Assembly: GCA_030834065.1 (NCBI GenBank) | Contig: JAURFX010000003.1 | Coordinates: forward strand, 1-41,433 | Origin: Gammaproteobacteria bacterium | GTDB lineage: Bacteria; Pseudomonadota; Gammaproteobacteria; Steroidobacterales; Rariloculaceae | Direction: 5' to 3' | Length of the DNA stretch: 41,433 nt | Shown here: positions 10,459 through 24,537 of the stretch, one piece after another | Layout: each line of letters begins with the position of its first letter | How positions within the stretch are numbered: position 1 is the first letter of the stretch | The notes under the pieces: model-generated | Database searches by the model: none | The model's input: the letters and a program-made list of their open reading frames with translations, nothing else | Told to the model about the DNA's origin: nothing | Made by a program: the position numbers and the translations under genes

Positions 10459-10983
10459 ATACTCAAAGACCAAAAAAATCAATTTGGTATAGTCTCAATA
10501 GCCCTGCATTGGATTGTAGCGATTGCAATACTTATGATACTCCTCTCAGGTAGAGAATTAGCCAACGGAAACTCTAATCTATCCTATGATGAAATTTTAC
10601 TTGTACATGCTCGAGTAGCATATTTAGTATTGCCTTTTTTTCTTTTCAGGTTCCATTGGAGGCTAAGGCAGGGCTATCCAAAATTTACAATTGCAAAGAA
10701 GTTGAGTCATATTATTCCTCCTTTTCAATACCTTATCTTGATAAGTATATTTTTTAGCTATTTATCCTGCTACTTCATCCTAAATATAGATACAAATTTA
10801 TGGTATTTAGAGCAGGAGAATTTAGCGAGCATGAACTCGGAAATATCGATTCATACCTTTGTTGCGAAGACTGCCTTTTTATTAATAATCATCCATATCA
10901 TAGCTGCAAGCATACAGATCCTATTTGCAAAGAATGTAAATGCACGTAGGATGATATCATTGCCTGATAATGAAAAAACTTAG
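10459..10983 (+). CDS. cytochrome b561 (YceJ/CybB-like) di-heme membrane protein
   Basis: The frame is open upstream of the called ATG (10534) and gives LKDQKNQFGIVSIALHWIVA, a typical N-terminus with the first His. Further His residues in VHARV, IHTF, IHIIAA; C-terminal RRMI. The start appears to be ATA at 10459. Confidence 0.75.
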   Translation: MLKDQKNQFGIVSIALHWIVAIAILMILLSGRELANGNSNLSYDEILLVHARVAYLVLPFFLFRFHWRLRQGYPKFTIAKKLSHIIPPFQYLILISIFFSYLSCYFILNIDTNLWYLEQENLASMNSEISIHTFVAKTAFLLIIIHIIAASIQILFAKNVNARRMISLPDNEKT

Positions 10984-11452
10984 TTATTGCATCACCTATT
11001 TACTTTTACTATTCTCAACCTCTCTTGCGGCTGAGAAATTAAATTACTTTATAGCCTATACCCAGGAGGAAAATGGCATTGTAATTGAAAATTGGGATGG
11101 TTATGAGCCAACGCTAGGATTAAATTTTTCTCAAATCATCGATTATTGCACCTCTAGTCATTCTAATCATTCAATACCTACTTTTGAGGCCTTTGATTTG
11201 TCTAATCTTCAGATCAATTGCTATGACCGTCATGGGAATGAAATCAATGAAGTACCATTAATTCTAAGTGTAGAGAGCCTGGCAGATATTTTTAACCTGA
11301 ATGGGACAGAGATTTATTTTACTGATAAAAACTATCCTTATATCAGATTATGGGCAGAGTGCATTTATGAAAGATCCGATGGATCAAGATTTACTTTTCC
11401 TATAATTTTACTTAATAATAAAGGCTTTATTTCAAAAATTATCCAACCATGA
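10970..11452 (+). CDS. hypothetical secreted protein
   Basis: 160-aa ORF with a Sec signal peptide (MKKLS...SLAA), overlapping both neighbours. No family recognised. Confidence 0.6.
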   Translation: MKKLSYCITYLLLLFSTSLAAEKLNYFIAYTQEENGIVIENWDGYEPTLGLNFSQIIDYCTSSHSNHSIPTFEAFDLSNLQINCYDRHGNEINEVPLILSVESLADIFNLNGTEIYFTDKNYPYIRLWAECIYERSDGSRFTFPIILLNNKGFISKIIQP

Positions 11453-12444
11453 TACCTGAGTCTGTGCTTGAGAGTTATGACCTTGGCCATTGTTCAATAA
11501 AGACAATCAATACAGGATTGATCAATAAAACCTGGAAATTATCTGCAGCGTCGGGTGATTTTATTTTTCAAAAGATAAATCCTATTTTTCCAGAACAAAT
11601 TCACGAATCGATTCATAAAATCACAAAGATACTTTTGCAAGACGACATTGGCTCTGTTGAAATAATAAGGACTAAAAATGGAGAACTGATCCATAAAGAA
11701 AATGATGAAATTTGGAGGGTTACGAAATATATCTCGGGTGATAATTTTGAGATTACCCCAGATGCTGATTATGCGTTTAGTCTTGGGAAGGGATTGGCTA
11801 AAATGCAAAAATGCCTTCGTAATGTAAAGGTTGGAGTTCCTTTAAGAACAATCAAAGAGACCGATAGGTGCTATGAAGATTTAATTTCTCTTATAAAATT
11901 AAGTCAAGATCACTCGCAAATTAAAACTATTCAAAAGTATGCTGAAGAAATAAGTAAAGAGTATGCGGCCCTTGATCAAAAGTTAGAAATTAATAATAGG
12001 CAAATGATCCATGGGGATCCCAAAATATCTAATGCTATATTTATAAACGGATCACCTGACATTAAAGCTTGGATAGATTTTGATACCATCGCTTTTCAAA
12101 ATCCCTATGACGAAGTTGGAGATGCTATTCGGTCTTGGTGTAATCCAGTTCATGAATCTGATACGGAGAGTCAGCTGGATCAAACATTACTTAAAGCTAC
12201 GCTTGAAGGCATTGTATATTTTGATATCTATAAAGAAATAAACAGTAAATCAGTTATTCAATTTTACACAAAAAAAATAACGCTTCGTTTGGCAATGCGT
12301 TTCTTAACAGATGCAATGACAGAGAATTACTTTTTTTGGGATAAAAGCAAATACAATACACTCTCGGAGCAAAATATTGCAAGAACGCGCGCGCAACTCA
12401 ATTTACTCAAATCAATTGAGTCTGCATTTATGACACTTCTGTGA
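11449..12444 (+). CDS. aminoglycoside phosphotransferase / N-acetylhexosamine-1-kinase-like phosphotransferase
   Basis: GLINKTW, FIFQKIN..F, Brenner motif HGDPKISN, WIDFDT, GDAIRSWCN, RFLTD...YF. Confidence 0.85.
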   Translation: MIPESVLESYDLGHCSIKTINTGLINKTWKLSAASGDFIFQKINPIFPEQIHESIHKITKILLQDDIGSVEIIRTKNGELIHKENDEIWRVTKYISGDNFEITPDADYAFSLGKGLAKMQKCLRNVKVGVPLRTIKETDRCYEDLISLIKLSQDHSQIKTIQKYAEEISKEYAALDQKLEINNRQMIHGDPKISNAIFINGSPDIKAWIDFDTIAFQNPYDEVGDAIRSWCNPVHESDTESQLDQTLLKATLEGIVYFDIYKEINSKSVIQFYTKKITLRLAMRFLTDAMTENYFFWDKSKYNTLSEQNIARTRAQLNLLKSIESAFMTLL

Positions 12445-12481: not shown

Positions 12482-13795
12482 ATGATAAACAATTATCAAA
12501 TTGTTGGTATAACTTGGCGCGATCATCTTCAAGAGGAGATTGAAAAGATCTCATTAAACGAAGAACAGGCGCTTAAAGCCCTGCAGTTATTACAAAAAAA
12601 ATATCAAGTTGAAGAGTGTGCGTATCTTAAAACCTGTAACAGAATTGAGCTCTTTATCTATACAGAAGATTTATCTATACATAAAAACATTAGAAAGATT
12701 TGGCGCGAAATCATAGGTCAATTTCGAATAGCAAAATCTGAAAGCATTCAATTTAGATCGTGGAGAGGAGAAGGAGCGTTTGAGCATCTTTTTATGGTTT
12801 CCTCTGGTCTCGATTCTGCCTCTTTAGGAGAAAGTGAAATTTTATATCAGCTAAAGAAAACAAAAGAATTTGCTCAAAAAAATCACTTGATTGCATCAGA
12901 AATTAACTTCCTGTTTGAGGAGTCATTCAAAGTTGCTGCACAGATTAAGAGAAACACATTACTTAACTCGGGAAAGCAATCCTTATCTGAAATCGCAATA
13001 AATATTTTTATAAAACCAAATCTACCTGACAAAGATTTTAAAATAGGTCTGATTGGCACATCCCCTGTAATTATAAATGCACTCAAGTCACTTCTAGAAA
13101 GAGAATTTAAGCCTACTTTAATTAATAGAACGCTCAAAAATATACAAGATCTAAAAGATAAGTACCCTATTAAGATGATCAGCTTAAATGATCTAAATTC
13201 TGGCAATCATCATTTCGATGTAATCTTATCTGCCACAAGTGCAACAGAGAAAATTATCAATGAAAAATCACTAAAAGCCATATTTATCAATCAAACAAAA
13301 ATTTATATCGATTTAGCAAGCACTCCTGACGTCTCATCAGCTGTATGCAAAAGAAATAACATAAAATATTACTCCTTAGATGATGTGATTGAGAAGGCAA
13401 AATACACGCATCAAATACGTCAGGCAGAAGTAGCAAATGCAAGAGAAATTATTGATAGCTATTTGATTAATTTAAATCAAAAGATTAATGATAAGAAATA
13501 CAACTCAATTTATTCTGCAATACAAAAAAGATATCAATACACCGCCTCAGAGGGCATTAAAAGATTAATTAAAAAAAATGCATTAAAACTTGATCAAAAT
13601 GCTATAAATGAAATTGATATTTGGTGTTCAGCCCTTGCAAGAAGATTTGCTCACATTCCAACCTTAGGCATAAAAGGCTTACTGAATAATGGTCCAGACG
13701 GTTCTGTTGAGGCATTCATTGAGGGTCTTGATGAAAAGTTTCAAACTGAACTAAAGCTCGCAATACTAGAAACCAAAGGCGGCAATCTTGATTAA
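12482..13795 (+). CDS. hemA: glutamyl-tRNA reductase (divergent)
   Basis: TCNRIE catalytic Cys, AFEHLF.VSSGLDS..LGESEI..Q, NRT, SATSA, IDLA. First gene of the hem operon. Confidence 0.88.
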   Translation: MINNYQIVGITWRDHLQEEIEKISLNEEQALKALQLLQKKYQVEECAYLKTCNRIELFIYTEDLSIHKNIRKIWREIIGQFRIAKSESIQFRSWRGEGAFEHLFMVSSGLDSASLGESEILYQLKKTKEFAQKNHLIASEINFLFEESFKVAAQIKRNTLLNSGKQSLSEIAINIFIKPNLPDKDFKIGLIGTSPVIINALKSLLEREFKPTLINRTLKNIQDLKDKYPIKMISLNDLNSGNHHFDVILSATSATEKIINEKSLKAIFINQTKIYIDLASTPDVSSAVCKRNNIKYYSLDDVIEKAKYTHQIRQAEVANAREIIDSYLINLNQKINDKKYNSIYSAIQKRYQYTASEGIKRLIKKNALKLDQNAINEIDIWCSALARRFAHIPTLGIKGLLNNGPDGSVEAFIEGLDEKFQTELKLAILETKGGNLD

Positions 13796-14684
13796 GATAG
13801 GAACCAGAGCCTCGCATTTAGCAAGAACTCAAGCACTTTTAGTTGAGAAAAAACTAAATGATCTTGGTATAGAAACTAAAATAGTCATCATCACAACAGA
13901 AGGTGATAAGAATTTAAATAAGAACTTTTCTGAAATAGGTTCTCAGGGAATATTTGTCAAAGAACTAGAACAGTCATTATTAAAACAAGATATTCATATT
14001 GCTGTACATTCAGCCAAAGACCTTCCAATCCAGATAGATAAAAAATTACAAATTGGCGCCTACCTTAAAAGAGAAGATCCTGCAGATATACTACTTAGCT
14101 ATCATGAGATAAATGAAAATGTATTAAAAAGTAAAAAATTAACTATTGGTACTTCATCAATTCGAAGATCTAAATGGATTAGCCATTTTTATCCTCATAT
14201 CATTGTTGAAGGTCTAAGAGGCAATGTACCCACAAGAATAAAAGCATTAGAAAATATTGATGTAATTATATTAGCTAAAGCAGGCTTGAACCGCTTAGAT
14301 AAGTCTCCTCTGTCTGATAAGCCGAATATCGATTTTAATAAATTTCATATGCATCGACTTGATCCTAATCAATTTGTATCTGCACCTGGTCAAGGTGCCA
14401 TAGCTATTGAATGCTTAAAAGCAAGCAAAGATATACTTGATTCCCTCGATAGAATTAACCATAAAGAAACCCAGACTTGTATCGATCATGAAAGGATAAT
14501 GTTAGGTCACTTAAGTGGTGGTTGCAATGTTCCGCTTGGAGTTTATGTCAAAATGATCAATCAAAATAATTCTTTCGAGATGCATATTGCACATGCATTA
14601 AATAACAAATTTATTAAGAAAACGTTTCAATACAATAAGATAAATCAAGTTGAAGAAAAAATATTACAAGAATTAAAATCATGA
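13788..14684 (+). CDS. hemC: hydroxymethylbilane synthase (porphobilinogen deaminase)
   Basis: IKIGTRAS.LA..Q, T.GD, GIFVKELE, AVHSAKDLP, GTSS.RR, LRGNV.TR, APGQGA, GGCNVPLG. TTG start. Confidence 0.95.
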   Translation: MIKIGTRASHLARTQALLVEKKLNDLGIETKIVIITTEGDKNLNKNFSEIGSQGIFVKELEQSLLKQDIHIAVHSAKDLPIQIDKKLQIGAYLKREDPADILLSYHEINENVLKSKKLTIGTSSIRRSKWISHFYPHIIVEGLRGNVPTRIKALENIDVIILAKAGLNRLDKSPLSDKPNIDFNKFHMHRLDPNQFVSAPGQGAIAIECLKASKDILDSLDRINHKETQTCIDHERIMLGHLSGGCNVPLGVYVKMINQNNSFEMHIAHALNNKFIKKTFQYNKINQVEEKILQELKS

Positions 14685-15403
14685 ACATCAGAGGTAAAAA
14701 AATTCTTATCACCAGAGATAACGAAGGAAATAAAGATTGGCAAGAGAAATTGCGCTCTCTGGGCGCCTTAGTAAAGACTTTGGACTGTATTAGTATTCAT
14801 GAATTTGATATGAATAAAGAGGAGTTAGCTGAGATAAGAAGAATAATCGAAGCTTCACAATATGTGATTTGGACTTCTGCGAGAGGCGTTTTGTATTCAA
14901 GAAAATTTTTTAATGGACAGATCGCTTCGAAGCTCTGTGCCGTAGGTATTCCTACCGCTAAGGAGATAAAAAAATACTTTGGTAATCCTTATTTGATTAG
15001 CCAAGAGATGAATGCAAGAGGACTCAGTCAAATTATTATTAAAAATGAAGACCTTAAAAATAAAAAAATCTTATTACTCTTGGCCATAAATGCCTCAGAT
15101 TTTCTAGAAAAGGAGCTTCAAAATGCAGGCGCCAATGTAAAACGAATTAATATTTATGAAACCAGACCGATAATGCTTAATGATCCAATTTTATTAAGCT
15201 CACTAGATGTTAATCATATTTTTGTTGCTAGCCCAAGTGCAGCGAAGGGCCTAAAAAATAATGTAATTTTCGACTGTTCAGTCAACGTTTACCCTATTGG
15301 AATAACTACAAAAAAAACTTTAGATGAGTATCAAATTAAAACTCAGCCTATACCAAAATACACAGGTCTCGAAGGTCTAATAAATCAATTAAATAATAAT
15401 TAA
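14681..15403 (+). CDS. hemD: uroporphyrinogen-III synthase
   Basis: GKKILITR, WTSARGV, AVG..TA, YET, ASPSA, IG.TT; directly after hemC. Confidence 0.88.
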   Translation: MNIRGKKILITRDNEGNKDWQEKLRSLGALVKTLDCISIHEFDMNKEELAEIRRIIEASQYVIWTSARGVLYSRKFFNGQIASKLCAVGIPTAKEIKKYFGNPYLISQEMNARGLSQIIIKNEDLKNKKILLLLAINASDFLEKELQNAGANVKRINIYETRPIMLNDPILLSSLDVNHIFVASPSAAKGLKNNVIFDCSVNVYPIGITTKKTLDEYQIKTQPIPKYTGLEGLINQLNNN

Positions 15404-15405
15404 CT

Positions 15406-16374
15406 ATGGGTAGAGAATATAGAATCAATCAGGAAATCAGGGATAGCTTAGCTGAAACTTCATTATCGCGCTCAGACCTTATCATGCCCTACTTTGTAAA
15501 TGACTCAAGTCATTCTATACAGATTTCTGCAATGCCTGGAATATTAAATCATTCAATTGCTTCTCTAATTCCAGCTGTTCAAGAGCAGTTAAAATTTGGT
15601 ATCGATTCCATACTTCTCTTCGGAAGTACAGAAAATCAAAAAAATAAAACTAATGACGGTAGCTATGCTTATCACGAAAAAGGCATTACACAGGCAGCGG
15701 TACGCGCTTTAAAAAAAGAATTTGGGAATGACCTTACTATTATCACCGATGTGTGTATATGCTCATACACAAATCATGGTCATTGTGGTGTCACTCAGGG
15801 AGAAAATATTCTTAACGATGAGACCCTTCCTATCCTTGCAAAAATTGCAAAAAGTCACGCAGATGCTGGAGCAGATATCATTTCCCCGTCAGATATGATG
15901 GATAGCAGAGTGCAATTTATCTCAGATTATTTAAAAGAAGAGATTAATCAAAAGATTCCATTATTTAGTTATGCCGCAAAATTTGCCTCTTCTTACTATG
16001 GGCCCTTTAGAGAGGCAGCAGATTCATCGCCGAAATTTGGTGATAGAAAGAGCTATCAAATGGATTACAGAAATTCTAATGAGGCCATGAGCGAGATCAA
16101 GGAAGACCTCGATCAAGGTGCTGATGGAATTATTTTTAAACCTGCTTTAGCTTATTTGGATATCTTAGCTAGGGCAAGCAAAAAATTTGATACTAGAAAG
16201 TTGGCTTATAATGTCTCTGGTGAGTATTCAATGGTAAAGGCAGCGGGCATGAAGGGATGGATTAATGAGAAAGAAATTATTATAGAAAATCTTTTTTGCA
16301 TGAAGAGAGCAGGCGCGACTGACATTATTACTTATCATGCATTAGAAGTTGCAAAAAATAATTGGATCGAATAG
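15406..16374 (+). CDS. hemB: porphobilinogen synthase (ALA dehydratase), Zn-type
   Basis: DVCICSYTNHGHCG Cys triad, SPSDMMD, KFASSYYGPFREAA, GDRKSYQMD, FKPAL.YLD, AYNVSGEY. Confidence 0.97.
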   Translation: MGREYRINQEIRDSLAETSLSRSDLIMPYFVNDSSHSIQISAMPGILNHSIASLIPAVQEQLKFGIDSILLFGSTENQKNKTNDGSYAYHEKGITQAAVRALKKEFGNDLTIITDVCICSYTNHGHCGVTQGENILNDETLPILAKIAKSHADAGADIISPSDMMDSRVQFISDYLKEEINQKIPLFSYAAKFASSYYGPFREAADSSPKFGDRKSYQMDYRNSNEAMSEIKEDLDQGADGIIFKPALAYLDILARASKKFDTRKLAYNVSGEYSMVKAAGMKGWINEKEIIIENLFCMKRAGATDIITYHALEVAKNNWIE

Positions 16375-16376
16375 CA

Positions 16377-17666
16377 ATGCAGATAGAAAAATCTAAAAAA
16401 TTATATGAGCAAGCGTGTAAAGTTATTCCTGCAGGTGTCAGCTCACCGGTAAGGGCCTTCAAAGCTGTGGGTGGCAATCCAATCTACATGAGGTCTGGTC
16501 AGGGTCCCTTTATTAATGATGTGGATGGAAATCAATACCTTGACTTTGTTATGTCATGGGGCCCACTTATACATGGTCATGCCAATCAAAAAATTATTCA
16601 AAAAATAATTGAAGCCGCTCATAATGGGACTTCTTTTGGCACACCTTGTGAGGATGAATTAAACCTTGCAAGGTTTATTGTTGATTCATATAAATCCATA
16701 GATCAAGTACGTTTTGTCTCATCGGGGACAGAAGCAGTCATGAGCGCGATAAGACTGGCTAGAGGTTTCACAGGTCGAGATCTTATTATTAAGTTTGATG
16801 GTTGTTATCATGGACATGTCGATCCCTTGTTGGTTTCTGCCGGTTCTGGCTTGGTTACGCTAGGGAATCCTTCATCTCTGGGAATTCCACACGAAGTTTC
16901 TAAGCAAACTATCTCTCTTCCGCTAAATCGTATTGAACAAGTTAAGAGAGCATTTATTGATTTTAAAGGTCAAATTGCAGCTGTAATCATTGAGCCAATT
17001 CCTGCTAATAACGGCTTATTGCTTCAAACAAAAGAATTTATCTCAGGTCTTAGGGAATTATGTGATGAAAATCATGCATTGTTAATATTTGATGAAGTTA
17101 TCAGCGGCTTTAGGGTCGCTCAGGGAGGGTCCCCAGAGATATTTAACATCAATCCTGATCTTGTAACATTTGGCAAAGTAATTGGAGGAGGGCTGCCCGC
17201 CGGCGCATTTGGCGCTAATAGAGAGATAATGAATCACATTGCACCAAATGGAGGAGTTTACCAAGCAGGGACTTTATCTGGAAATCCATTAGCAATGGCT
17301 GCTGGCTTTGCAAGTCTAAAACTCCTTCAGGATGAAAATAGTTGGGAATATCTTGAAAACTTGGGTTCTTATCTAGAGAAAAAAGTTAAACTCCTGGGCT
17401 TTAATGAAAAATTTAATGTTAGTTTTGTCCGACAAGGTTCCATTTTTTGGTTTGCACTTGATACAAATATACCACCGATTAGATCAGAGGATATTAATGC
17501 TAAATCAGAGAAAAAATACGCTTCGATATTTAATGGCTTACTAAAAAATAAAATATATATCGCTCCCAGTATGTATGAAGTTGGATTTCTATCCACATCA
17601 CACAATAAAGAACATGTAGATCACTTTATTCAATCTTTATATCACTCAATGGAATGTATAAGTTAA
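16377..17666 (+). CDS. hemL: glutamate-1-semialdehyde 2,1-aminomutase
   Basis: PAGVSSPVRAF, SWGPLIHGH, SGTEAVMSAIRLARG, FDGCYHGH, FDEVISGFR, FGKVIGGGLP, YQAGTLSGNP. ATG at 16377 is preferred over TTG at 16362. Confidence 0.97.
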   Translation: MQIEKSKKLYEQACKVIPAGVSSPVRAFKAVGGNPIYMRSGQGPFINDVDGNQYLDFVMSWGPLIHGHANQKIIQKIIEAAHNGTSFGTPCEDELNLARFIVDSYKSIDQVRFVSSGTEAVMSAIRLARGFTGRDLIIKFDGCYHGHVDPLLVSAGSGLVTLGNPSSLGIPHEVSKQTISLPLNRIEQVKRAFIDFKGQIAAVIIEPIPANNGLLLQTKEFISGLRELCDENHALLIFDEVISGFRVAQGGSPEIFNINPDLVTFGKVIGGGLPAGAFGANREIMNHIAPNGGVYQAGTLSGNPLAMAAGFASLKLLQDENSWEYLENLGSYLEKKVKLLGFNEKFNVSFVRQGSIFWFALDTNIPPIRSEDINAKSEKKYASIFNGLLKNKIYIAPSMYEVGFLSTSHNKEHVDHFIQSLYHSMECIS

Positions 17667-18733
17667 GCCAGAGAAATACCTTTAGACTGGAAATTACTTT
17701 TGTAGTTCTTCTGGTGCTTACTTTTGGTCAAGTAATTTGGTGGATTTATGACCAGATACAGTACACAGAGAACATCAATAGTAGCTTACTAAGACAATAC
17801 GAAATTGAAGCAGAACTTCTTGAGAGTCAAAATTCCTCGGACCCTTTAAATATTCGAGACTTCCCTTACCTAACCGAGATCAACGGTGAGATTATGATTA
17901 GTGCAGATGCGCTCGCTAATATCGAGGCCGAGAGAAGCTCAAGAATAAACCGTTATTTTTGGGAAGGAAGTTTCTTTATTGTGGTTATATCGCTATGTAT
18001 TTTAATCATATTCAAAACCATCAGTAAGGATCGAGCTTTGAATCGAAGGCAGCAAAACTTTATTGCCTCTATAAGTCATGAATTAAAAACCCCACTCACC
18101 AGTATGCGTCTTGCCGCCGAGACGATTGGAATAAATAATCAGGATGAGAGATCAATCAGAATGGTAAATCGTATCCTCTCCGAGGGTGATAGATTACTTC
18201 ATTTGATCGAGAATCTACTTGATGCTAATAAGCTTGATGAAAAGAAATTCCAAGTTCAAGTCTCTCAATTTGCTATAAATGGCCTTATTGAAAAAGTTTT
18301 AAATGGTCTTTTTCTTAGAGCTGAAGAATGTGGAATTGAAATTCAAACAATGATTAATACTGATAAGACAATTAATAATGATCCTTTAATTGTGTCCATT
18401 ATCTTGAGAAATATTATTGAAAATGCTGTAAAAGCCTGCGAACAGAGCAATCAAAAGCTTATCAGAGTAGTCGCAAATAGGACTGATGACGGAATTGCAG
18501 TAGAAGTGATAGATTCTGGTATTGGTATCCAAAAGGAAGAAAAAGAAAATATCTTTGATAAGTTTTACCGAGTGGGAGATGAAAAATTACGTACAACTTC
18601 AGGTAGCGGACTTGGTCTCTATATTTGCAGAAAATTAGCAAAACTAACAAATATCTCCATAGAAGTTAGTAGTGAGGGTATGAATCAAGGATCTACCTTT
18701 AAAGTTTCAATAAGGGATATTTCTAATGTCTAA
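17654..18733 (+). CDS. membrane sensor histidine kinase (HisKA), HemK(Leptospira HemKR)-like by position
   Basis: Two TM segments flank a short extracytoplasmic region; H-box SHELKTPL, N-box NIIENAVK, D.GIGI, IFDKFYR, GSGLGL. Confidence 0.92.
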   Translation: MYKLSQRNTFRLEITFVVLLVLTFGQVIWWIYDQIQYTENINSSLLRQYEIEAELLESQNSSDPLNIRDFPYLTEINGEIMISADALANIEAERSSRINRYFWEGSFFIVVISLCILIIFKTISKDRALNRRQQNFIASISHELKTPLTSMRLAAETIGINNQDERSIRMVNRILSEGDRLLHLIENLLDANKLDEKKFQVQVSQFAINGLIEKVLNGLFLRAEECGIEIQTMINTDKTINNDPLIVSIILRNIIENAVKACEQSNQKLIRVVANRTDDGIAVEVIDSGIGIQKEEKENIFDKFYRVGDEKLRTTSGSGLGLYICRKLAKLTNISIEVSSEGMNQGSTFKVSIRDISNV

Positions 18734-19439
18734 TATCTTGGTAGTAGATGATGAAAAGGTCTTGGGCGAAAGTATTAAAGATGCTTTAGCCTCAGAGGGA
18801 TATGAAGTCAAGATCGCATCGAATGGACAAATTGGTTTTGACTTGATCTCTTCTGAGCCTTTTGATCTCATCATATTAGATGTCATGATGCCAGAAATAA
18901 ATGGGATTGATCTTTGCAAGAAAGTCAGAGAAATAAATGTACTTACTCCAATTTTATTTTTGACGGTCAATAATGACCCTGAAGATAGAATATTGGGACT
19001 TGAAGCTGGGGGTGACGATTACCTTGGTAAGCCATTTCACTTAAAAGAATTATTACTTAGAACCAGAAAACTAATTCAAAGAACCCAGTGGTATGCTAGA
19101 ACCAACGATAGTTTTGCATTTGAAGACATTTATATTGATTTTTCAAGTTACCAAATTGAATCTTGGGATAAAAAAATATATAACCTGACCCAGAAGGAAG
19201 CCATGATCCTAAAACTTCTTATTGAAAATGAGGGGGCAACGGTATCTCGCGAAGATATCCTAGAGAAAATTTGGGGTTATGAATCTTATCCCTCTACTCG
19301 AACAATAGATAACTTTATCGTTCGCTTAAGAAAAAGAATCGAACGTAATCCAGAGCAACCTACTCATCTTCATACTATAAGAGGCGTTGGTTATAAATTT
19401 ACTAAAAATCCATTAGAGAATAATGATCCTGAACTATGA
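18726..19439 (+). CDS. OmpR/PhoB-family response regulator, HemR-like by position
   Basis: ILVVDDE, LDVMMPEING, GGDDYLGKPF, wHTH LTQKE...TRTIDNFIVRLRK.IE...TIRGVGY. Confidence 0.93.
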   Translation: MSNILVVDDEKVLGESIKDALASEGYEVKIASNGQIGFDLISSEPFDLIILDVMMPEINGIDLCKKVREINVLTPILFLTVNNDPEDRILGLEAGGDDYLGKPFHLKELLLRTRKLIQRTQWYARTNDSFAFEDIYIDFSSYQIESWDKKIYNLTQKEAMILKLLIENEGATVSREDILEKIWGYESYPSTRTIDNFIVRLRKRIERNPEQPTHLHTIRGVGYKFTKNPLENNDPEL

Positions 19440-20449
19440 ATAATAAAAGACTTTTAAATGCCCTTAACCTCAAAGAAAATGATCATAGACCTATTTGGAT
19501 TATGCGACAAGCGGGTAGATACCTACCTGAATACAGGAAGGTAAGGGAAAAGTATAGCTTTAGAGAGGTCTCAGAAACACCCGAACTTGCAGCAGAGGTT
19601 ACTCTTCAGCCACTCAAAAGATTTGAATTCGATGCCTCTATCATATTTGCAGATATCATTACTCCACTTAAGGCTATGAATATAAATTTTGATTTTAGTC
19701 CTGGCCCTATCATTGAAAATCCAATCAATAACCCAAGACAAATTGATGCCCTACCTGATAAATTTTATGAAGTTGCCCCAGAGGTGCAGGCATCTTTAAA
19801 ATTAGTTAAATCTGAATTAAAGTCCCACCAAACACTTATTGGTTTTGGTGGTGCACCCTGGACCTTAGCTGCCTACCTTATCCAAGGAAAAGGACAAAAA
19901 GACTTTCCCGCAATAAGGCGCTTTGCGTCTGAACACCCTGAGTCTCTTCAGAGCCTTTTAACTAAACTCAGCGATCTAAGTATCCAGTACTTTAAAGAAC
20001 AAATTGATTCTGGAGCAGAGGTTATTCAAATTTTTGACTCTTGGGCTGGTTTGCTTTCTATCAAGGATTGGCAAACATGGATACAACCCCATTTACTTCA
20101 TATTGTTAGCGCTCTTAAGGCATCTAATATCCCAGTAATTCTATTTCTACAAAATGCAAATCATTTGGTTGAGTATTACTGCGAACTTCCAATCAGTGGA
20201 ATCGGTGTCGATTGGAGAGTTGATTTATCAAAACTGCAATCAAAATTAAAAGATCATATAGCTGTTCAGGGCAACTTAGACCCAGCTATTCTGCTTGCAG
20301 GACCAGAAATTACAAAAAAGTATGCTATAAATTTACTTAACAGTATCGATCCTAAGGGGCATATCATGAATTTAGGTCATGGTATTTTACCTAACACTCC
20401 CATCGAGAGTGTTCATGCACTAATTGAAGTAATTAAAAATGAGAGATAA
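19436..20449 (+). CDS. hemE: uroporphyrinogen decarboxylase
   Basis: PIWIMRQAGRYLPEY, IIFADI, GFGGAPWTLA.Y, QIFDSW, VQGNLDP, NLGHGI.P. Confidence 0.97.
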   Translation: MNNKRLLNALNLKENDHRPIWIMRQAGRYLPEYRKVREKYSFREVSETPELAAEVTLQPLKRFEFDASIIFADIITPLKAMNINFDFSPGPIIENPINNPRQIDALPDKFYEVAPEVQASLKLVKSELKSHQTLIGFGGAPWTLAAYLIQGKGQKDFPAIRRFASEHPESLQSLLTKLSDLSIQYFKEQIDSGAEVIQIFDSWAGLLSIKDWQTWIQPHLLHIVSALKASNIPVILFLQNANHLVEYYCELPISGIGVDWRVDLSKLQSKLKDHIAVQGNLDPAILLAGPEITKKYAINLLNSIDPKGHIMNLGHGILPNTPIESVHALIEVIKNER

Positions 20450-20452
20450 GAC

Positions 20453-21166
20453 ATGAAAATTTCAGAAACTACAGGACAAGTTGATCTAAGTGAAAAAGGT
20501 CTCAATCAAGGCCAATTGATCTCTCTTGACCGAAGATTATTTATGAAATTTAATGCCTTCTCAGGGCGAATTGACGAAAAAGAAATTATTAAAAAATGTA
20601 GTGAAATTAATGGTGTTATTTATAGAGACATTAATGATCCAAATGGTATCGGTCTTCTTATTCTTAGCGAAGACCCTGCCGAATTTATCAAGATCAATCA
20701 AGAAGTCTTATCTTTGCCACCATTCTCTGATCTTCAGCATAAGCATGAATTTGATATGCTTGGTAGGACTTACTCGATTGGATATGAAAATGATCTCGAG
20801 GAAGTTCTTATAAATAAACCCAAAAATAAAATAAAGGATCCAAATTTTAAATGGTGTGTATGGTACCCACTAAGACGTGAAAAAAAGTTTTATGTACTTC
20901 CAGCTGACAAGCAAAAAAAGATCCTTGGTGAGCATGGCAATCTTGCTAAGCGCTATGGCTATGCTGGTCTTGCCGTGGATATCCGTCTAGCCTGTCATGG
21001 TCTTGATAAACAAGATAATGATTTTGTAATTGGGCTGCTTGGGCCTGATCTCCATCCCTTATCTGCAGTCGTTCAAGAGATGCGACAAACGGAGCAAACA
21101 GCTCACTACCTAGAAAGTTTAGGTCCCTTTTTTATTGGCTTAAAAATTTGGGAGAATATCTCATAA
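20453..21166 (+). CDS. chdC: chlorite dismutase-family protein, probable coproheme decarboxylase (ChdC/HemQ)
   Basis: WYPLRR (YPxxK/R catalytic-Tyr motif), ILGEHG proximal His, GLD..D.DFVI, VQEMR, GPFFIG. Located between hemE and the ferrochelatase. Confidence 0.75.
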   Translation: MKISETTGQVDLSEKGLNQGQLISLDRRLFMKFNAFSGRIDEKEIIKKCSEINGVIYRDINDPNGIGLLILSEDPAEFIKINQEVLSLPPFSDLQHKHEFDMLGRTYSIGYENDLEEVLINKPKNKIKDPNFKWCVWYPLRREKKFYVLPADKQKKILGEHGNLAKRYGYAGLAVDIRLACHGLDKQDNDFVIGLLGPDLHPLSAVVQEMRQTEQTAHYLESLGPFFIGLKIWENIS

Positions 21167-22200
21167 TGCATGAGTATGATTCTCTCTTGATTCTCTCTTT
21201 TGGTGGGCCCGAGGGTAAAGAAGATGTCTTGCCATTTCTAAGAAATGTACTTAAAGGTATTCCCGTCAAAGATGAAACCTATGAAGAAATTCAAGAGCGT
21301 TATGATCTATTTGATGGAGTATCACCTATCAATGCCAATACTAGGCTATTCATCGATACCTTATCAAAAGCCCTCAAATTAAAAAGAATCATGCTCCCCA
21401 TATACTGGGGTAATCGAAATTGGCATCCAATGCTCAGTGATACGATGCAAAAAATGAAAGAGGATGGAAGAAAAAAAACACTTGTATTTGTTACAAGTAT
21501 TTTTAGTTCTTATAGCGGATGCAGAAAATACCGCGAGGATCTCTATGAATCAAGCGCAACCATTGAGCATTCGATAGAGTTCGATAAAATCAGAAATGGG
21601 TATAATCATCCTGGCTTTATTAAGGGAATAGCAAGTTGCATTAATGAAACAATCAAAAATAACAATCTGAGCAAAGAAACCCAAGTATTTTTTACCGCAC
21701 ATAGTTTGCCAATCTCAATGGCAGAAAAAACAGAATACAAAAATCAACTCCTTGATAGCTGTCAATTGGTCGCAAATGAACTTGAGTTAAAAAATTGGAA
21801 GCTATGCTACCAGAGTAACAACGCATCTTATGGAAATAAATGGTTAGAGCCAACGATTGAAGATGAAATAGTAGCTATGGGCCAAGCACCTACAAAAGAT
21901 TGCATTGTAATGCCTATCGGATTTGTATGTGATCATATGGAAGTTGTACTTGATCTTGATATTGATGCAAAAAATATTGCTTTGCAGAATGATGTAAACC
22001 TTTACAGGGCGCCAACACTTGGTATTAACGAAAACTTTATTGATATGGTGGTAGATCTTATTGACGAAAGAATGCAAAAAAGAGAAGAAAAAAAGTTTCT
22101 AGGCGAAAGAGGCCCTAATCACAATCAATGTCCAATAAACTGCTGCCTCTCAGGTAGGCCAGGAAATCCAAAGCCTTCACTATGTGGTGAAGCTAGCTAA
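21166..22200 (+). CDS. hemH: ferrochelatase, actinobacterial-type (probable coproporphyrin ferrochelatase CpfC) with C-terminal Cys cluster
   Basis: YD.LL.LSFGGPEG..DV.PFL.NV, GVSPIN, PIYWGNRNWHP, SSYSGCR.YRED, FTAHSLP, YQS, WLEP, PIGFVCDHMEV..DLD, C-terminal CPINCC. TAATG overlap with the upstream stop; GGAG RBS. Confidence 0.93.
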   Translation: MHEYDSLLILSFGGPEGKEDVLPFLRNVLKGIPVKDETYEEIQERYDLFDGVSPINANTRLFIDTLSKALKLKRIMLPIYWGNRNWHPMLSDTMQKMKEDGRKKTLVFVTSIFSSYSGCRKYREDLYESSATIEHSIEFDKIRNGYNHPGFIKGIASCINETIKNNNLSKETQVFFTAHSLPISMAEKTEYKNQLLDSCQLVANELELKNWKLCYQSNNASYGNKWLEPTIEDEIVAMGQAPTKDCIVMPIGFVCDHMEVVLDLDIDAKNIALQNDVNLYRAPTLGINENFIDMVVDLIDERMQKREEKKFLGERGPNHNQCPINCCLSGRPGNPKPSLCGEAS

Positions 22201-22202
22201 AA

Positions 22203-23555
22203 ATGCCTGAAGTATTTGATGTGATTATCATTGGTGCAGGTTTAAGCGGTCTCACCACAACAAAATATCTAAAAGATGCAAATATAAGTACGTTAACACT
22301 TGAGGCATCTGATGTCCCAGGCGGTCGACTAAGATCTATTGAAAATAAAGATAATTCTTTTGAATTTGGAGGTACTTATATCGGACATCATTATCATCGC
22401 TTTCAAAATTTAGCCAAAGAACTCAATTTAACTACTATCGATGTCACTCCATTGATTAGCTTTTTTAAAAAACAAGATCTAGTCATAAATAAACAATTAA
22501 TTCATCAAGATGACTGGGAGAATCATAAGGAAAATACCTTGGATAAAGATCTAAAATCTATCTTGCCCTGGAATCTACATCGCATAATTTTAGAAAAATA
22601 TAACCCTTATAATTCACCTGAAGCATGTCTTACTGAAGGAACTAATGATCAATCGATGAGAGATTGGCTTCAAAGTCTAGGCTTTGATAGCCAACAAATA
22701 AAATATATTTATGGCATGAATTTAAGTTATGGGACTGATGCCGATTCAATTTCCTCGCTGCAATTAATGCATCGAGCGAGTTTTTCTAAAAGACAAAAAT
22801 CAGAGTCTAAAGTTATAGGTTTCACCTTGCTTGAAGGTATGAATGAGCTAGCCAATCGGTATATCAATCATTTTAATTTAAATATATTATTCAAAAATCG
22901 AGTCAATAAGATCGTTAAAGAAAAAGGTCTTTTTTCAGTATCCTGTGAAAATGGAAATGAGTTTAGTGCAGAAAGACTTGTCCTTACTTGTGCCCCATCT
23001 ACACTTAAAAATATAACATTTGATGATTATTCAAAAGAACAAAGGATTCAGTTTGCCTCAGAATTGCAATCCCAACCCATGTTCCAAATTCATTTTAAGC
23101 ATAAAAAGAATTTCTGGGAGCAAGACGGATTCTCTCCCGCTATATTCTCTAATGAATACCTTGGGATGTGCTATCCAGTTAGAAATAAAGTTGATCCCGA
23201 GGAGATCATTGGTTTTACTGCATGGGTTATGGGAAAAAAGGCATTAGATCTTATCAAGCTCTCTCAAAAAGATGCTTGCTCAGTTATCATAAATAATCTA
23301 CAGGAGATAAGACCAAGCATAAAAAATGCAATTGAATTAACTCATCTTAATGCCTGGTCCCATGAAAAAGATTTTTTAGGAGGGTGGACGTATTTCAAGC
23401 CAAACCAGTTCTTAATGTGGCATAAGCTTTTACAGTCAGAGAAAAGTAATATCTTCTTTTCAGGAGAGCATACTTCTATTAGCTCGAGGGGAATTGAGGG
23501 CGCTATTGAGTCTGGAGAGAAGACTGCTAGAGAACTTTTAAATTCTATTCATTAA
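22203..23555 (+). CDS. flavin monoamine oxidase family FAD-dependent oxidoreductase
   Basis: DVIIIGAGLSGL, LEA.D..GGR, EFGGTYI, IFFSGEHT...GIEGAIESG (MAO/LAAO-type C-terminus). Confidence 0.85.
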   Translation: MPEVFDVIIIGAGLSGLTTTKYLKDANISTLTLEASDVPGGRLRSIENKDNSFEFGGTYIGHHYHRFQNLAKELNLTTIDVTPLISFFKKQDLVINKQLIHQDDWENHKENTLDKDLKSILPWNLHRIILEKYNPYNSPEACLTEGTNDQSMRDWLQSLGFDSQQIKYIYGMNLSYGTDADSISSLQLMHRASFSKRQKSESKVIGFTLLEGMNELANRYINHFNLNILFKNRVNKIVKEKGLFSVSCENGNEFSAERLVLTCAPSTLKNITFDDYSKEQRIQFASELQSQPMFQIHFKHKKNFWEQDGFSPAIFSNEYLGMCYPVRNKVDPEEIIGFTAWVMGKKALDLIKLSQKDACSVIINNLQEIRPSIKNAIELTHLNAWSHEKDFLGGWTYFKPNQFLMWHKLLQSEKSNIFFSGEHTSISSRGIEGAIESGEKTARELLNSIH

Positions 23556-24537
23556 AAAGATATCTCTCCGGTATCGGAAGGTCTTTAATCATATTTAAAT
23601 ATTCGTCTCGATAGTCTAAATCGAATATTTTAGCAATTTCATCTTTTTTTAAGTGCGTAGATAATAAACTAATGAAATCTATAAGGTATGCTCTTGTAAT
23701 TATTGACTGAGGAACACCAATCCAGGTTGTGAGCTCTGGAAATAGTTTTCTAATATCTAACACATAAAGATCATTTAAATCATTTGGCTCTATAGCCATT
23801 GAGGCAACAATGCCAACGCCCATGCCCTTTCTAACATAAGTCTTTATTATGTCGGCATCTCTGGCAGTAAAGGCAATCCTTGGGGTTAATCCCTGGCTCT
23901 CAAAAGCTTGCAAAAAGGATGATTGTCCCTGAACGCTAAAAATATAAGTGACTAATGAATGCTTTGATAAAATTTCTAGGTTAATGTTTCTTTTGTCCTT
24001 AGCTAGGGGGTGGCTTTTGGGGACAATAGCTACTCGACTCCACCTATAGATAGGAATTTGAAGAAGTTCATTGTTAAATGCATTAAGTCCACTCGCAATA
24101 ACACAATTGACTCTTTTTTCTCTGACTAACTCATCAATTTGCTCAGAGGTTCCTTGGTGAAGCTCAAGATCAATCAATGGGAATTTATCTGAAAACTGTC
24201 TAATTATATCGGGAAGGACATATCTTGCCTGAGTGTGAGTTGTGCCAATTGATAAAACTCCCCTCTGTTCGCCTTTTGATTCCAAAGCAAAATTTTCAAT
24301 TTCATAAATATCATTTAAGACCCTCTTTGCTCGCTCGTATACTTCTTGTCCAGCATCAGTCAAGGAGGTCAAGCTTTTACCCTTTTTTAAAAATAACTTT
24401 ATCCCAAGTTCTGATTCTAAAAGTTTCAATTGCTTACTTATTCCTGGCTGACTCGTGAAGAGTAATTCTGAAGCTGCGGTTATATTTAGGCCACAGTCAA
24501 CCGTTTGAATAAAATATCGAAGTTGCTTTAACGTCAT
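23545..24537 (-). CDS. cysB: LysR-type regulator CysB/Cbl
   Basis: MTLKQLRY...LNITAASE.LFTSQPGISKQ..LLE.ELG, TTHTQARYVLP, LHQG, FTARDADIIKTYV..G.GVGI.ASMA. Confidence 0.92.
   Translation of the reverse strand: MTLKQLRYFIQTVDCGLNITAASELLFTSQPGISKQLKLLESELGIKLFLKKGKSLTSLTDAGQEVYERAKRVLNDIYEIENFALESKGEQRGVLSIGTTHTQARYVLPDIIRQFSDKFPLIDLELHQGTSEQIDELVREKRVNCVIASGLNAFNNELLQIPIYRWSRVAIVPKSHPLAKDKRNINLEILSKHSLVTYIFSVQGQSSFLQAFESQGLTPRIAFTARDADIIKTYVRKGMGVGIVASMAIEPNDLNDLYVLDIRKLFPELTTWIGVPQSIITRAYLIDFISLLSTHLKKDEIAKIFDLDYRDEYLNMIKDLPIPERYLFNE

Follow-up and report, generated by a model that had tools for sequence, protein, structure and literature searches.

Which route completes heme synthesis in a gammaproteobacterium whose genome returns no hemF, hemN, hemJ or canonical hemY? 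The question is raised by a 41,433-nt contig (JAURFX010000003.1, assembly GCA_030834065.1), called the window here in its full length, from a metagenome-assembled genome (MAG) of the family Ca. Rariloculaceae. This genome (G000), of which the window is contig 66, comprises 1.17 Mb in 104 contigs, with 82.6% completeness and 2.4% estimated contamination. A sequence-only reading of positions 20453–22200 had noticed a gene of the chlorite dismutase (Cld) family coupled to a ferrochelatase with actinobacterial signatures, and had proposed that the organism makes heme b via coproheme, by the coproporphyrin-dependent (CPD) pathway. We found that these two genes sit within an 11-gene heme operon and that a third gene, encoding a flavoprotein similar to monoamine oxidase (MAO), follows them. 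The window very probably holds a complete heme operon ending in a CPD terminal module, chdC-cpfC-MAO-like gene, and the proposal that heme b is made via coproheme in this organism is, with high confidence, correct. It is supported by the fold and residues of the ChdC-like protein, the kinship of the ferrochelatase with CpfC, the gene order and the missing hemF, hemN, hemJ and hemY.

CPD is known as the route of Firmicutes, Actinobacteria, many Chloroflexi, Acidobacteria and "some diderm bacteria", and Proteobacteria except Deltaproteobacteria mainly use the protoporphyrin-dependent (PPD) route, according to three reports (PMC10740692, PMC7611857, PMC10427985). One of them (PMC10427985) confines CPD almost wholly to Gram-positive bacteria and presents it as a target for selective antibiotics. 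The known PPD, AHB and CPD enzymes appear to cover all known heme-synthesising organisms, as stated in a 2026 review (PMC13564367). Full-text literature searches returned, in the text portions they covered, no description of a gammaproteobacterial CPD pathway or of an amine-oxidase-type coproporphyrinogen oxidase, and an earlier mention in primary ChdC or CPD papers is possible.

The ChdC-like protein and its ferrochelatase partner

Positions 12482–23555 carry a continuous series of same-strand genes, which the open reading frame (ORF) table and matches to Pfam and NCBIfam models identify as a heme operon in the order hemA, hemC, hemD, hemB, hemL, two genes of a two-component system, hemE, chdC, cpfC and the gene of the MAO-like flavoprotein. 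The hemE stop lies 3 nt before the ATG of chdC (20453..21166, + strand), the TAA of chdC overlaps the ATG of cpfC (21166..22200, +) as TAATG with a GGGAG about 10 nt upstream, and 2 nt separate the TAA of cpfC from the ATG of the MAO-like gene (22203..23555, +). hemE, chdC and cpfC are translationally coupled. The order from hemB through hemL, the histidine kinase, the response regulator, hemE, chdC and cpfC to the MAO-like gene was unchanged in 16 of the 16 family loci examined, which span 11 genera. Coproporphyrinogen III, the product of HemE, is the branch point of the pathway.

In the proposed pathway, HemE would yield coproporphyrinogen III and a flavoprotein, for which the MAO-like protein is the candidate, would oxidise it to coproporphyrin III with release of H2O2. 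The CpfC-type ferrochelatase, with its probable [2Fe-2S] site, would then insert iron to give coproheme, and ChdC, with H2O2 and Tyr138, would decarboxylate propionates 2 and 4 to give heme b. We infer the enzyme activities of all three terminal proteins, as well as the Fe-S cluster, from homology, fold, conserved residues and gene context.

The chdC-like ORF encodes 237 residues and matches Pfam Chlor_dismutase (PF06778) at 61.7 bits against a cut-off of 25. Its AF2 model (predicted local distance difference test, pLDDT, 91.3) folds into two alpha+beta halves. Among the Foldseek matches listed, ranks 1–11 were all solved coproheme decarboxylases, with template modelling (TM) scores of 0.64–0.73, and chlorite dismutases ranked lower. 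The best structural matches were the ChdCs of Streptomyces coelicolor, Listeria, Corynebacterium diphtheriae and Geobacillus, and the solved structures compared were 9miq for S. coelicolor, 4wws, 5loq and 6fxj for Listeria, 6xub and 7q4f for C. diphtheriae, and 5t2k for Geobacillus. Conserved residues point the same way. The segment YPLRR occupies residues 138–142 (nt 20864–20878), EHG with His161 lies at nt 20930–20938, and VDIRLACHGLD spans residues 175–185 (nt 20975–21007). In profile alignments, Y138 pairs with the catalytic Tyr, which lies in "FYPM" in the ChdC of Listeria and in "VYPF" in that of C. diphtheriae, and H161 with the proximal His of "DHG" and "EHG" in the same two proteins. 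R142 falls on Listeria Lys151, the Lys four residues after the catalytic Tyr, and R211 on the Arg of "EMR", so that the basic propionate-binding residues are kept. An alignment of 20 sequences, obtained after removal of four frameshifted-looking rows, showed Y138, P139, R142, H161, D176, R178, G183, D188 and R211, among others, to be invariant.

The distal side sets the protein apart. D176 aligns with the second Gln of Listeria "VQQII", which is Q187 after a +1 offset in chain numbering and which we take to correspond to the distal Arg of Clds, the defining residue of functional chlorite dismutases. There is no Arg at this position; the invariant Arg178 lies two residues later, and both residues are on one beta strand (E175–180) of the AF2 model. 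The Asp176/Arg178 pair is a hallmark of the clade and recalls the distal Asp/Arg of DyP peroxidases as they are described in PMC7611857, which also notes that distal residues vary among ChdC clades. With the ChdC (HemQ) proteins of Firmicutes and Actinobacteria, the window protein shares two ferredoxin-like domains, the catalytic Tyr, the proximal His, a basic residue at Tyr+4, the Arg of "MR" and a gene within a heme operon. It differs from them in its Asp176 and invariant Arg178, where Firmicutes have a distal Gln and Actinobacteria a loop His (PMC7611857), and in its host, a diderm gammaproteobacterium.

We then asked which proteins are closest to it, and found it to be one of a large and tight family. 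A word-indexed search gave 7697 relatives at E ≤ 0.001 among 8000 candidates scored, the best being 58–69% identical, and some of them carry the name "chlorite dismutase family protein" (Gammaproteobacteria or Ca. Rariloculaceae). An exhaustive search of representatives at 50% identity gave 515 relatives, many of them fragments. A scan of genome contigs gave five loci. Members with 49–54% identity occur in a Vicinamibacterales acidobacterium and two Caldilineaceae (Chloroflexi), and the window protein appears by sequence to share a clade with these Chloroflexi and Acidobacteria members. The two Caldilineaceae loci (L008, L009) and the lone Vicinamibacterales chdC (L007) show identical invariant residues. 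In the Caldilineaceae operons, as in the window, chdC stands amid heme genes (hemB, hemE, hemH, hemY and hemL), but their oxidase is a canonical HemY (TIGR00562, 277–300 bits), and their ferrochelatase is short (312 residues, best model PRK12435) and has no Cys tail.

The ferrochelatase frame is open from a TTG at 21148, and its true start is likely ATG 21166, which gives 344 residues, the length of a cluster representative with 94% identity (P0360). The protein matches PF00762 at 247 bits (cut-off 27) and TIGR00109 at 140.2 bits (cut-off 124.6) and is the sole ferrochelatase match in its genome. Numbered from 21148, YWGNRNWHP occupies residues 86–94, SYSGCRKYRED residues 121–131 (with Cys125) and CPINCC residues 328–333, with a further Cys at 346. 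The nearest solved relative, 28wn_A ("Coproporphyrin III ferrochelatase"), matched residues 8–333 at E 2.4e-63 (217 bits), followed by other solved CpfCs at 4e-30 to about 1e-23 and the human protoporphyrin ferrochelatase at about 1e-19. The window motifs align with GNRNWHP, SGCRQYDED and CEVNCC of 28wn_A, which likewise has a Phe at the proximal position; the window protein differs from it in falling below the cut-off of NF000689 and in its additional conserved Cys346. Phe18 of the window protein, aligned with the Tyr of Firmicutes CpfC, was invariant in 17 of 17 family orthologues, as were C125, C328, C332 and C333 (C346 in 16 of 17). We presume Cys-tailed CpfCs such as 28wn_A to be of the actinobacterial type, an assignment made in part by PMC10427985. 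In that paper the proximal residue is a Tyr for Firmicutes and a Phe for Actinobacteria, against a Met in the human protoporphyrin ferrochelatase, PpfC. The Cys spacing fits the CX(1,11)CX(1,11)C pattern of PMC8529089, and a [2Fe-2S] cluster in the window protein is probable. A relative's RNA-library contig (run X4) carries a +1/-1 indel pair three bases apart at window positions 21886–21889 of cpfC, which most probably reflects variation between strains or a mistake of assembly.

The motifs that the sequence-only reading had picked out by eye, the YPxRR Tyr, the proximal His, the Asp at the distal-Arg position with an Arg two residues on, the three ferrochelatase signatures and the coupling of the two genes, were all borne out. 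Its labels fared less evenly. For the ChdC of its "Gram-positive" pathway, the fold, the Tyr and the His held, but the clade is shared with Chloroflexi and Acidobacteria, not with Firmicutes or Actinobacteria. The "actinobacterial" type of the ferrochelatase is consistent with 28wn_A as nearest relative and with the Phe and Cys signatures, on which the term depends, and the named entries among the best 120 relatives are all gammaproteobacterial.

Several observations on these proteins tell against the CPD assignment. The Pfam match of the ChdC-like protein is limited to its C-terminal half (residues 128–230), and its identity to solved ChdCs is merely 13–18%. It misses the curated HemQ models, which derive from actinobacterial and Firmicutes HemQ clades (NF042928, 42.1 bits against 235; NF008913, 39.2 against 253), and these scores place it outside both of those ChdC clades. 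The ferrochelatase reaches 344 bits against a cut-off of 408 for its best NCBIfam model, NF000689. The activities of all three terminal proteins are predictions from sequence. On the supporting side, metatranscriptomic contigs 92–97% identical to the window, from four libraries of four studies (salt marsh or seawater), cover hemE, chdC and cpfC and, in parts, the oxidase gene; RNA libraries may contain DNA, so their support for expression is weak. Among these contigs, X4 record 24, X3 record 17 and X1 record 3 bridge the hemE/chdC junction, and X4 record 26 and X1 record 5 bridge chdC/cpfC; the cpfC/MAO-like junction is bridged by none of the records listed. In some runs the MAO-like gene had several bins without cover, to which we gave no weight.

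Distribution of the proposed pathway and a natural module exchange

We next evaluated how the ChdC-like protein is distributed. In a class sample of 400 scored genomes from 321 genera, its profile matched one genome, the window's own. In an order sample of 201 genomes, which included 21 other family members and 179 genomes from 23 other families, it matched 20 of the 21 own-family genomes versus none of the 179. The pattern of hemF (PF01218) is the reverse, with no match in the window's genome or in the 21 family members and matches in 134 of the 179 genomes of other families (122 matches over the curated cut-off). No hemJ (PF03653) was found in the window's genome, and the model matched 78 of the 179 genomes outside the family, typically at 120–174 bits. 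The 179 include a flagged unpublished genome (G414), whose removal leaves counts of 0/178 for ChdC, 133/178 for hemF and 77/178 for hemJ.

Since the MAG is 82.6% complete, the absence of genes from it alone proves little, a point against reading too much into its missing genes. A congener with 96% completeness (G459) has no match to hemF, hemN, hemJ, canonical hemY or Flavodoxin_5, and the genome check that the sequence-only reading had called for thus gave the same answer in both genomes, with hemF, hemN, hemJ and canonical hemY not found in either. At the organism level, the gene set is that of CPD: hemE, a candidate oxidase, cpfC and chdC are present, and hemF or hemN and a protoporphyrinogen oxidase are absent, with the caveats of MAG incompleteness and weak PF03653 matches elsewhere in the family. 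These matches, and three further kinds, run counter to a uniform CPD family. PF03653 (the HemJ family) exceeded the Pfam cut-off in 4 of 21 family genomes, at a weak 34–67 bits. Canonical HemY (TIGR00562) was over its cut-off in 2 of 61 family genomes. HemN passed its own in 2 of 41, the two that also have HemY, and in both hemN adjoins hemY. Flavodoxin_5 (the HemG family) was over its cut-off in 4 of 41; this model also matched 10 of 14 reference genomes used as a control and is therefore unspecific, so that the four matches decide nothing.

Two other candidates for the missing oxidase were rejected: none of 61 family genomes gave a match to DUF1444, the family of CgoN, and none of 5 to PF04261, for a DyP/YfeX-type porphyrinogen oxidase. 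Elsewhere in the order, family f258 (20 genomes) showed no match to hemF, hemJ or the ChdC clade, and families f4 and f259 showed weak hemF-like matches only; the terminal heme steps of these three families may be unusual, or no heme may be made.

The sole sampled family genome without ChdC (G495, 95% complete) also lacks the MAO-like protein and the CpfC-type ferrochelatase. Its operon runs hemA-C-D-B-L, histidine kinase, response regulator and hemE, followed by a 1.2-kb gap and then the same cysB-like neighbour as in the window. A relic of the MAO-like gene is left at this locus (L050, G495:C31 8398-9633), 59 residues long and 61% identical to the protein of a congener (G485; E 1e-17). On another contig, G495 carries hemH-hemN-hemY (L047, G495:C13 1375-5005), whose ferrochelatase is 21% identical to that of the window. 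The flanks of this contig match two congeners, G588 (74–81%) and G485 (72%), which indicates that the contig is native; mis-binning of the contig is refuted by the same matches at 72–81%. Three genes were thus lost jointly in a genome where a three-gene protoporphyrin module is present, an observation of one event in a draft genome. A further family genome (G598) carries both modules, on contigs C193 and C288. Taken over the family, the CPD module very probably replaced hemF/hemN, hemJ/hemG/hemY and PpfC at the root of Ca. Rariloculaceae and has been inherited vertically since.

The flavoprotein and the alternative explanations

The third gene of the module encodes a 450-residue protein with an N-terminal GxGxxG motif for flavin adenine dinucleotide (FAD) and a match to Amino_oxidase (PF01593) at 156 bits. 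Matches to it occur in 55 of 60 other family genomes; among high-quality genomes, the window's own included, the count is 41 of 42. Wherever chdC was located (20 genomes), the match lies on the chdC contig and strand, 1045–1495 bp downstream of chdC (tables compared by eye), and in the 16 family loci orthologues of down to 30–38% identity occupy the same slot. A metagenome scan with the MAO-like alignment retained 80 loci with G+C contents of 0.34–0.72. cpfC stood directly upstream of the MAO-like gene in 47 of the 58 loci with at least 900 bp of upstream sequence, and chdC upstream in 37 of the 45 that have 1900 bp or more. In the Caldilineaceae operons, whose ChdC is of the same clade, canonical HemY takes the place behind the ferrochelatase gene.

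The MAO-like protein itself failed as a HemY, with TIGR00562 scores of 19.1–34.8 bits versus 97.85 and a BLASTP E value of 0.3 to Caldilineaceae HemY. Because of these failures we do not file it as HemY and propose it merely for the same job as CgoX. Like CgoX of Bacillus subtilis and PgoX, it belongs to the FAD superfamily (Pfam Amino_oxidase), its gene follows the ferrochelatase gene, and the step is otherwise missing; it differs from them in clade by TIGR00562, BLASTP and the Protein Data Bank (PDB) profile search. A precedent exists in Priestia megaterium, where CgoN (YtpQ, DUF1444) is likewise a non-HemY flavoprotein for this step, oxygen-independent and discovered by gene neighbourhood, but has an unrelated fold of 270 residues (PMC10965808). 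We lean modestly towards the MAO-like protein as the enzyme of the coproporphyrinogen oxidase step.

This assignment is the part of the CPD reading with the most against it. Both the sequence and the fold of the protein are closest to those of amine and amino-acid oxidases. In a single-sequence search of the PDB, its best relatives were MAO-B and MAO-A, L-amino-acid oxidases (LAAO) and putrescine oxidase (1.8e-23), and the family profile gave MAO-B as top match (2.4e-56), with no protoporphyrinogen oxidase in the 60 best profile matches. The AF2 model (pLDDT 88.3) has MAO, putrescine oxidase and LAAO as nearest folds, with TM scores of 0.73–0.78, and no protoporphyrinogen oxidase occurs in Foldseek ranks 1–50. 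Its nearest paralogues are unlinked to heme genes.

Residues of the active site were compared by alignment only. In MAO-B, Lys296 presumably lies near flavin N5, and Tyr398 and Tyr435 presumably form the aromatic cage. Lys296 pairs with Gln295 of the window protein; the 17 heme-linked proteins compared all have Gln there, and the 4 proteins named as flavin monoamine oxidase family all have Lys. Tyr435 pairs with Ile, Met or Val, and C397 and Y398 fall in a gap. Arg127, Arg327, Arg370 and Arg429 of the MAO-like protein are invariant, and W123 and R127 are invariant in the heme-linked clade only. The loss of the flavin-N5 Lys also occurs in paralogues outside heme loci and is thus not specific to the heme-linked clade, a further point against the assignment. 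The pattern is suggestive, not decisive. Set beside the flavin amine oxidases (MAO-A/B, putrescine oxidase and LAAO), the protein is alike in its best sequence and fold matches and in GxGxxG; it differs in the Gln at the N5-Lys position, the residue at Tyr435, which is not Tyr, and the fixed place of its gene at the end of a heme operon.

The paralogues have features of their own. Eleven metagenome loci without cpfC carry paralogues at 29–32% identity. The closest (L125 2479-5479; L102, L112, L129, L126, L120) have 30–55 extra residues before the FAD motif, which are possibly export signals. One paralogue locus holds two tandem copies, and neighbours include genes for CN-hydrolase, short-chain dehydrogenase/reductase (SDR), major facilitator superfamily (MFS) transporter, cytochrome c and FG-GAP/ASPIC proteins. 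MAO-like matches also came from 7 of 401 genomes of the class (the window's own included); the six outside the family were 23–29% identical, came from genomes without ChdC and were treated as paralogues. Among the orthologues, those of genus g330 (L031 7663-9153, L032 7396-8910) contain a low-complexity insertion of 31–42 residues rich in Ala, Ser, Pro and Gly. It lies after the conserved "FS..Q" segment, at about columns 240–282 of alignment A3, and splits the search match in two.

The strongest alternative keeps the CPD reading of chdC and cpfC and sees in the MAO-like protein an oxidase of amines or amino acids that provides ChdC with H2O2 or is otherwise accessory, with oxidation of coproporphyrinogen III left to an unrecognised enzyme or to slow autoxidation. 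Oxygen-dependent CgoX chemistry itself produces H2O2, so a CgoX-type reaction would supply the oxidant without a separate provider. The sequence and fold of the protein speak for the alternative, as do the contexts of the 29–32% paralogues beside unrelated CN-hydrolase, SDR and transporter genes, and ChdC requires H2O2, according to PMC10427985. Joint loss with chdC and cpfC in G495 suits an H2O2 supplier as well as a pathway oxidase. Yet the searches found no other oxidase candidate (HemY in 2/61 genomes, CgoN in 0/61, DyP in 0/5), and the gene stands in the exact slot of canonical HemY in the Chloroflexi operons. The replacement of the amine-oxidase Lys by Gln and of Tyr435 by Ile, Met or Val, and W123 and R127, invariant solely in the heme-linked clade, also argue against a plain amine oxidase. 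We regard this alternative as possible, though rather unlikely.

A fuller version of the CPD reading, which we consider evenly balanced between right and wrong, takes the MAO-like protein as a third, non-orthologous coproporphyrinogen III oxidase next to CgoX of the HemY type and CgoN of the YtpQ type, recruited from an amine-oxidase subfamily that lacks the N5 Lys. Its H2O2 would feed a ChdC with a DyP-like Asp/Arg pair, and the resulting mosaic, self-sufficient cassette would have displaced the protoporphyrin route and later been displaced by hemH-hemN-hemY in at least one lineage.

A second alternative denies the decarboxylase altogether: the Cld-family protein would act as a chlorite dismutase, as a DyP-like peroxidase through Asp176 and Arg178, or as a heme chaperone, and the ferrochelatase would make protoheme from protoporphyrin supplied by unknown enzymes. 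We know of no assay of the window's ChdC clade, which we count for this alternative, together with the low HemQ scores, the position of Arg178 two residues off that of the Cld distal Arg, and the likeness of the Asp/Arg pair to the DyP active site described in PMC7611857. Against this, the catalytic Tyr is invariant in the ChdC-like proteins, whereas Clds have a conserved Ile at this position (PMC7611857). All 16 family loci have chdC coupled to hemE and cpfC, in Chloroflexi its partners are hemB, hemE, hemH and hemY, and it is absent jointly with cpfC where hemH-hemN-hemY occurs. The alternative also needs two unknown enzymes, one for coproporphyrinogen decarboxylation and one for protoporphyrinogen oxidation, instead of one, and we consider it improbable.

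That the operon is foreign, for example on a mis-binned actinobacterial or Chloroflexi contig, is hardly credible: the MAG is fragmented into 104 contigs with an estimated contamination of 2.4%, but the window has an even G+C of 0.33–0.41 and also encodes BamD, recA, alaS, aspS, clpB, TRAP/Tct transporters and a CysB-like regulator, the same operon occurs in single-contig family chromosomes (G560, G595, G504, G532), which already contradicts mis-binning, and other assemblies have a near-identical operon on contigs of 117 kb and 51 kb. A 98%-identical locus was also found.

The rest of the operon and what it means for the family

The upstream part of the operon carries the earlier heme genes, all on the + strand. 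It opens with hemA for glutamyl-tRNA reductase (12482..13795; Pfam GlutR_N 104.5 bits, Shikimate_DH 62 bits), which is followed, with an 8-nt overlap, by hemC for porphobilinogen deaminase (13788..14684; Porphobil_deam 214.7 bits). Next come hemD for uroporphyrinogen III synthase (14681..15403; HEM4 92.9 bits), hemB for 5-aminolevulinate (ALA) dehydratase (15406..16374; ALAD 406.7 bits) and hemL for glutamate-1-semialdehyde aminomutase (16362..17666; TIGR00713 539.9 bits, cut-off 527.3). hemE for uroporphyrinogen decarboxylase (19436..20449; TIGR01464 380.6 bits, cut-off 303) leads into the terminal module. The 3' boundary is marked by a convergent gene on the - strand for a CysB-like LysR regulator (23545..24537; NF009326 349.7 bits, below the cut-off of 436).

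Between hemL and hemE lie genes for a sensor histidine kinase (17654..18733, +; Pfam HisKA, HATPase_c) and an OmpR-type response regulator (18726..19439, +; Response_reg, Trans_reg_C), both in the same place in 16 of 16 family loci. The kinase seems, by eye, to have two predicted membrane spans flanking a short external loop. The pair is retained also in G495, which lost the CPD trio. Corynebacterium has heme-responsive two-component systems, and the embedded system of the window is possibly a sensor of heme, iron or oxygen. On the 5' side of hemA, positions 10534–12444 hold three same-strand genes, for a cytochrome b561-like protein (Ni_hydr_CYTB), a 160-residue ORF without a Pfam match and an APH-family phosphotransferase.

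Across the family, genome sizes range from 1.2 to 5.9 Mb, the smallest being the window's own, G459 and G605, and the G+C content of the heme locus from 0.34 to 0.72. In the window's genus, apparently a marine offshoot with streamlined genomes, the whole 11-gene heme operon has been kept.

The CPD pathway itself is known. The variant described here is new in its host, a whole gammaproteobacterial family, in a ChdC clade with a distal Asp/Arg pair and, if the modestly favoured oxidase assignment is right, in a MAO-like oxidase in place of HemY. The coproporphyrinogen oxidation step is without a known enzyme in 59 of 61 family genomes, and the gene in fixed position offers a testable candidate for it. 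A ChdC clade with a different distal pair bears on the activation of H2O2. Further points of interest are the natural exchange of three terminal heme genes for three others and the conservation of a two-component system within a heme operon. Annotation pipelines would label such organisms as heme-incomplete, or their genes as "chlorite dismutase" or "monoamine oxidase", as existing source names do. A whole family of diderm Gammaproteobacteria, from streamlined marine genomes of 1.2 Mb to genomes of 5.9 Mb, appears to depend on CPD for its heme.

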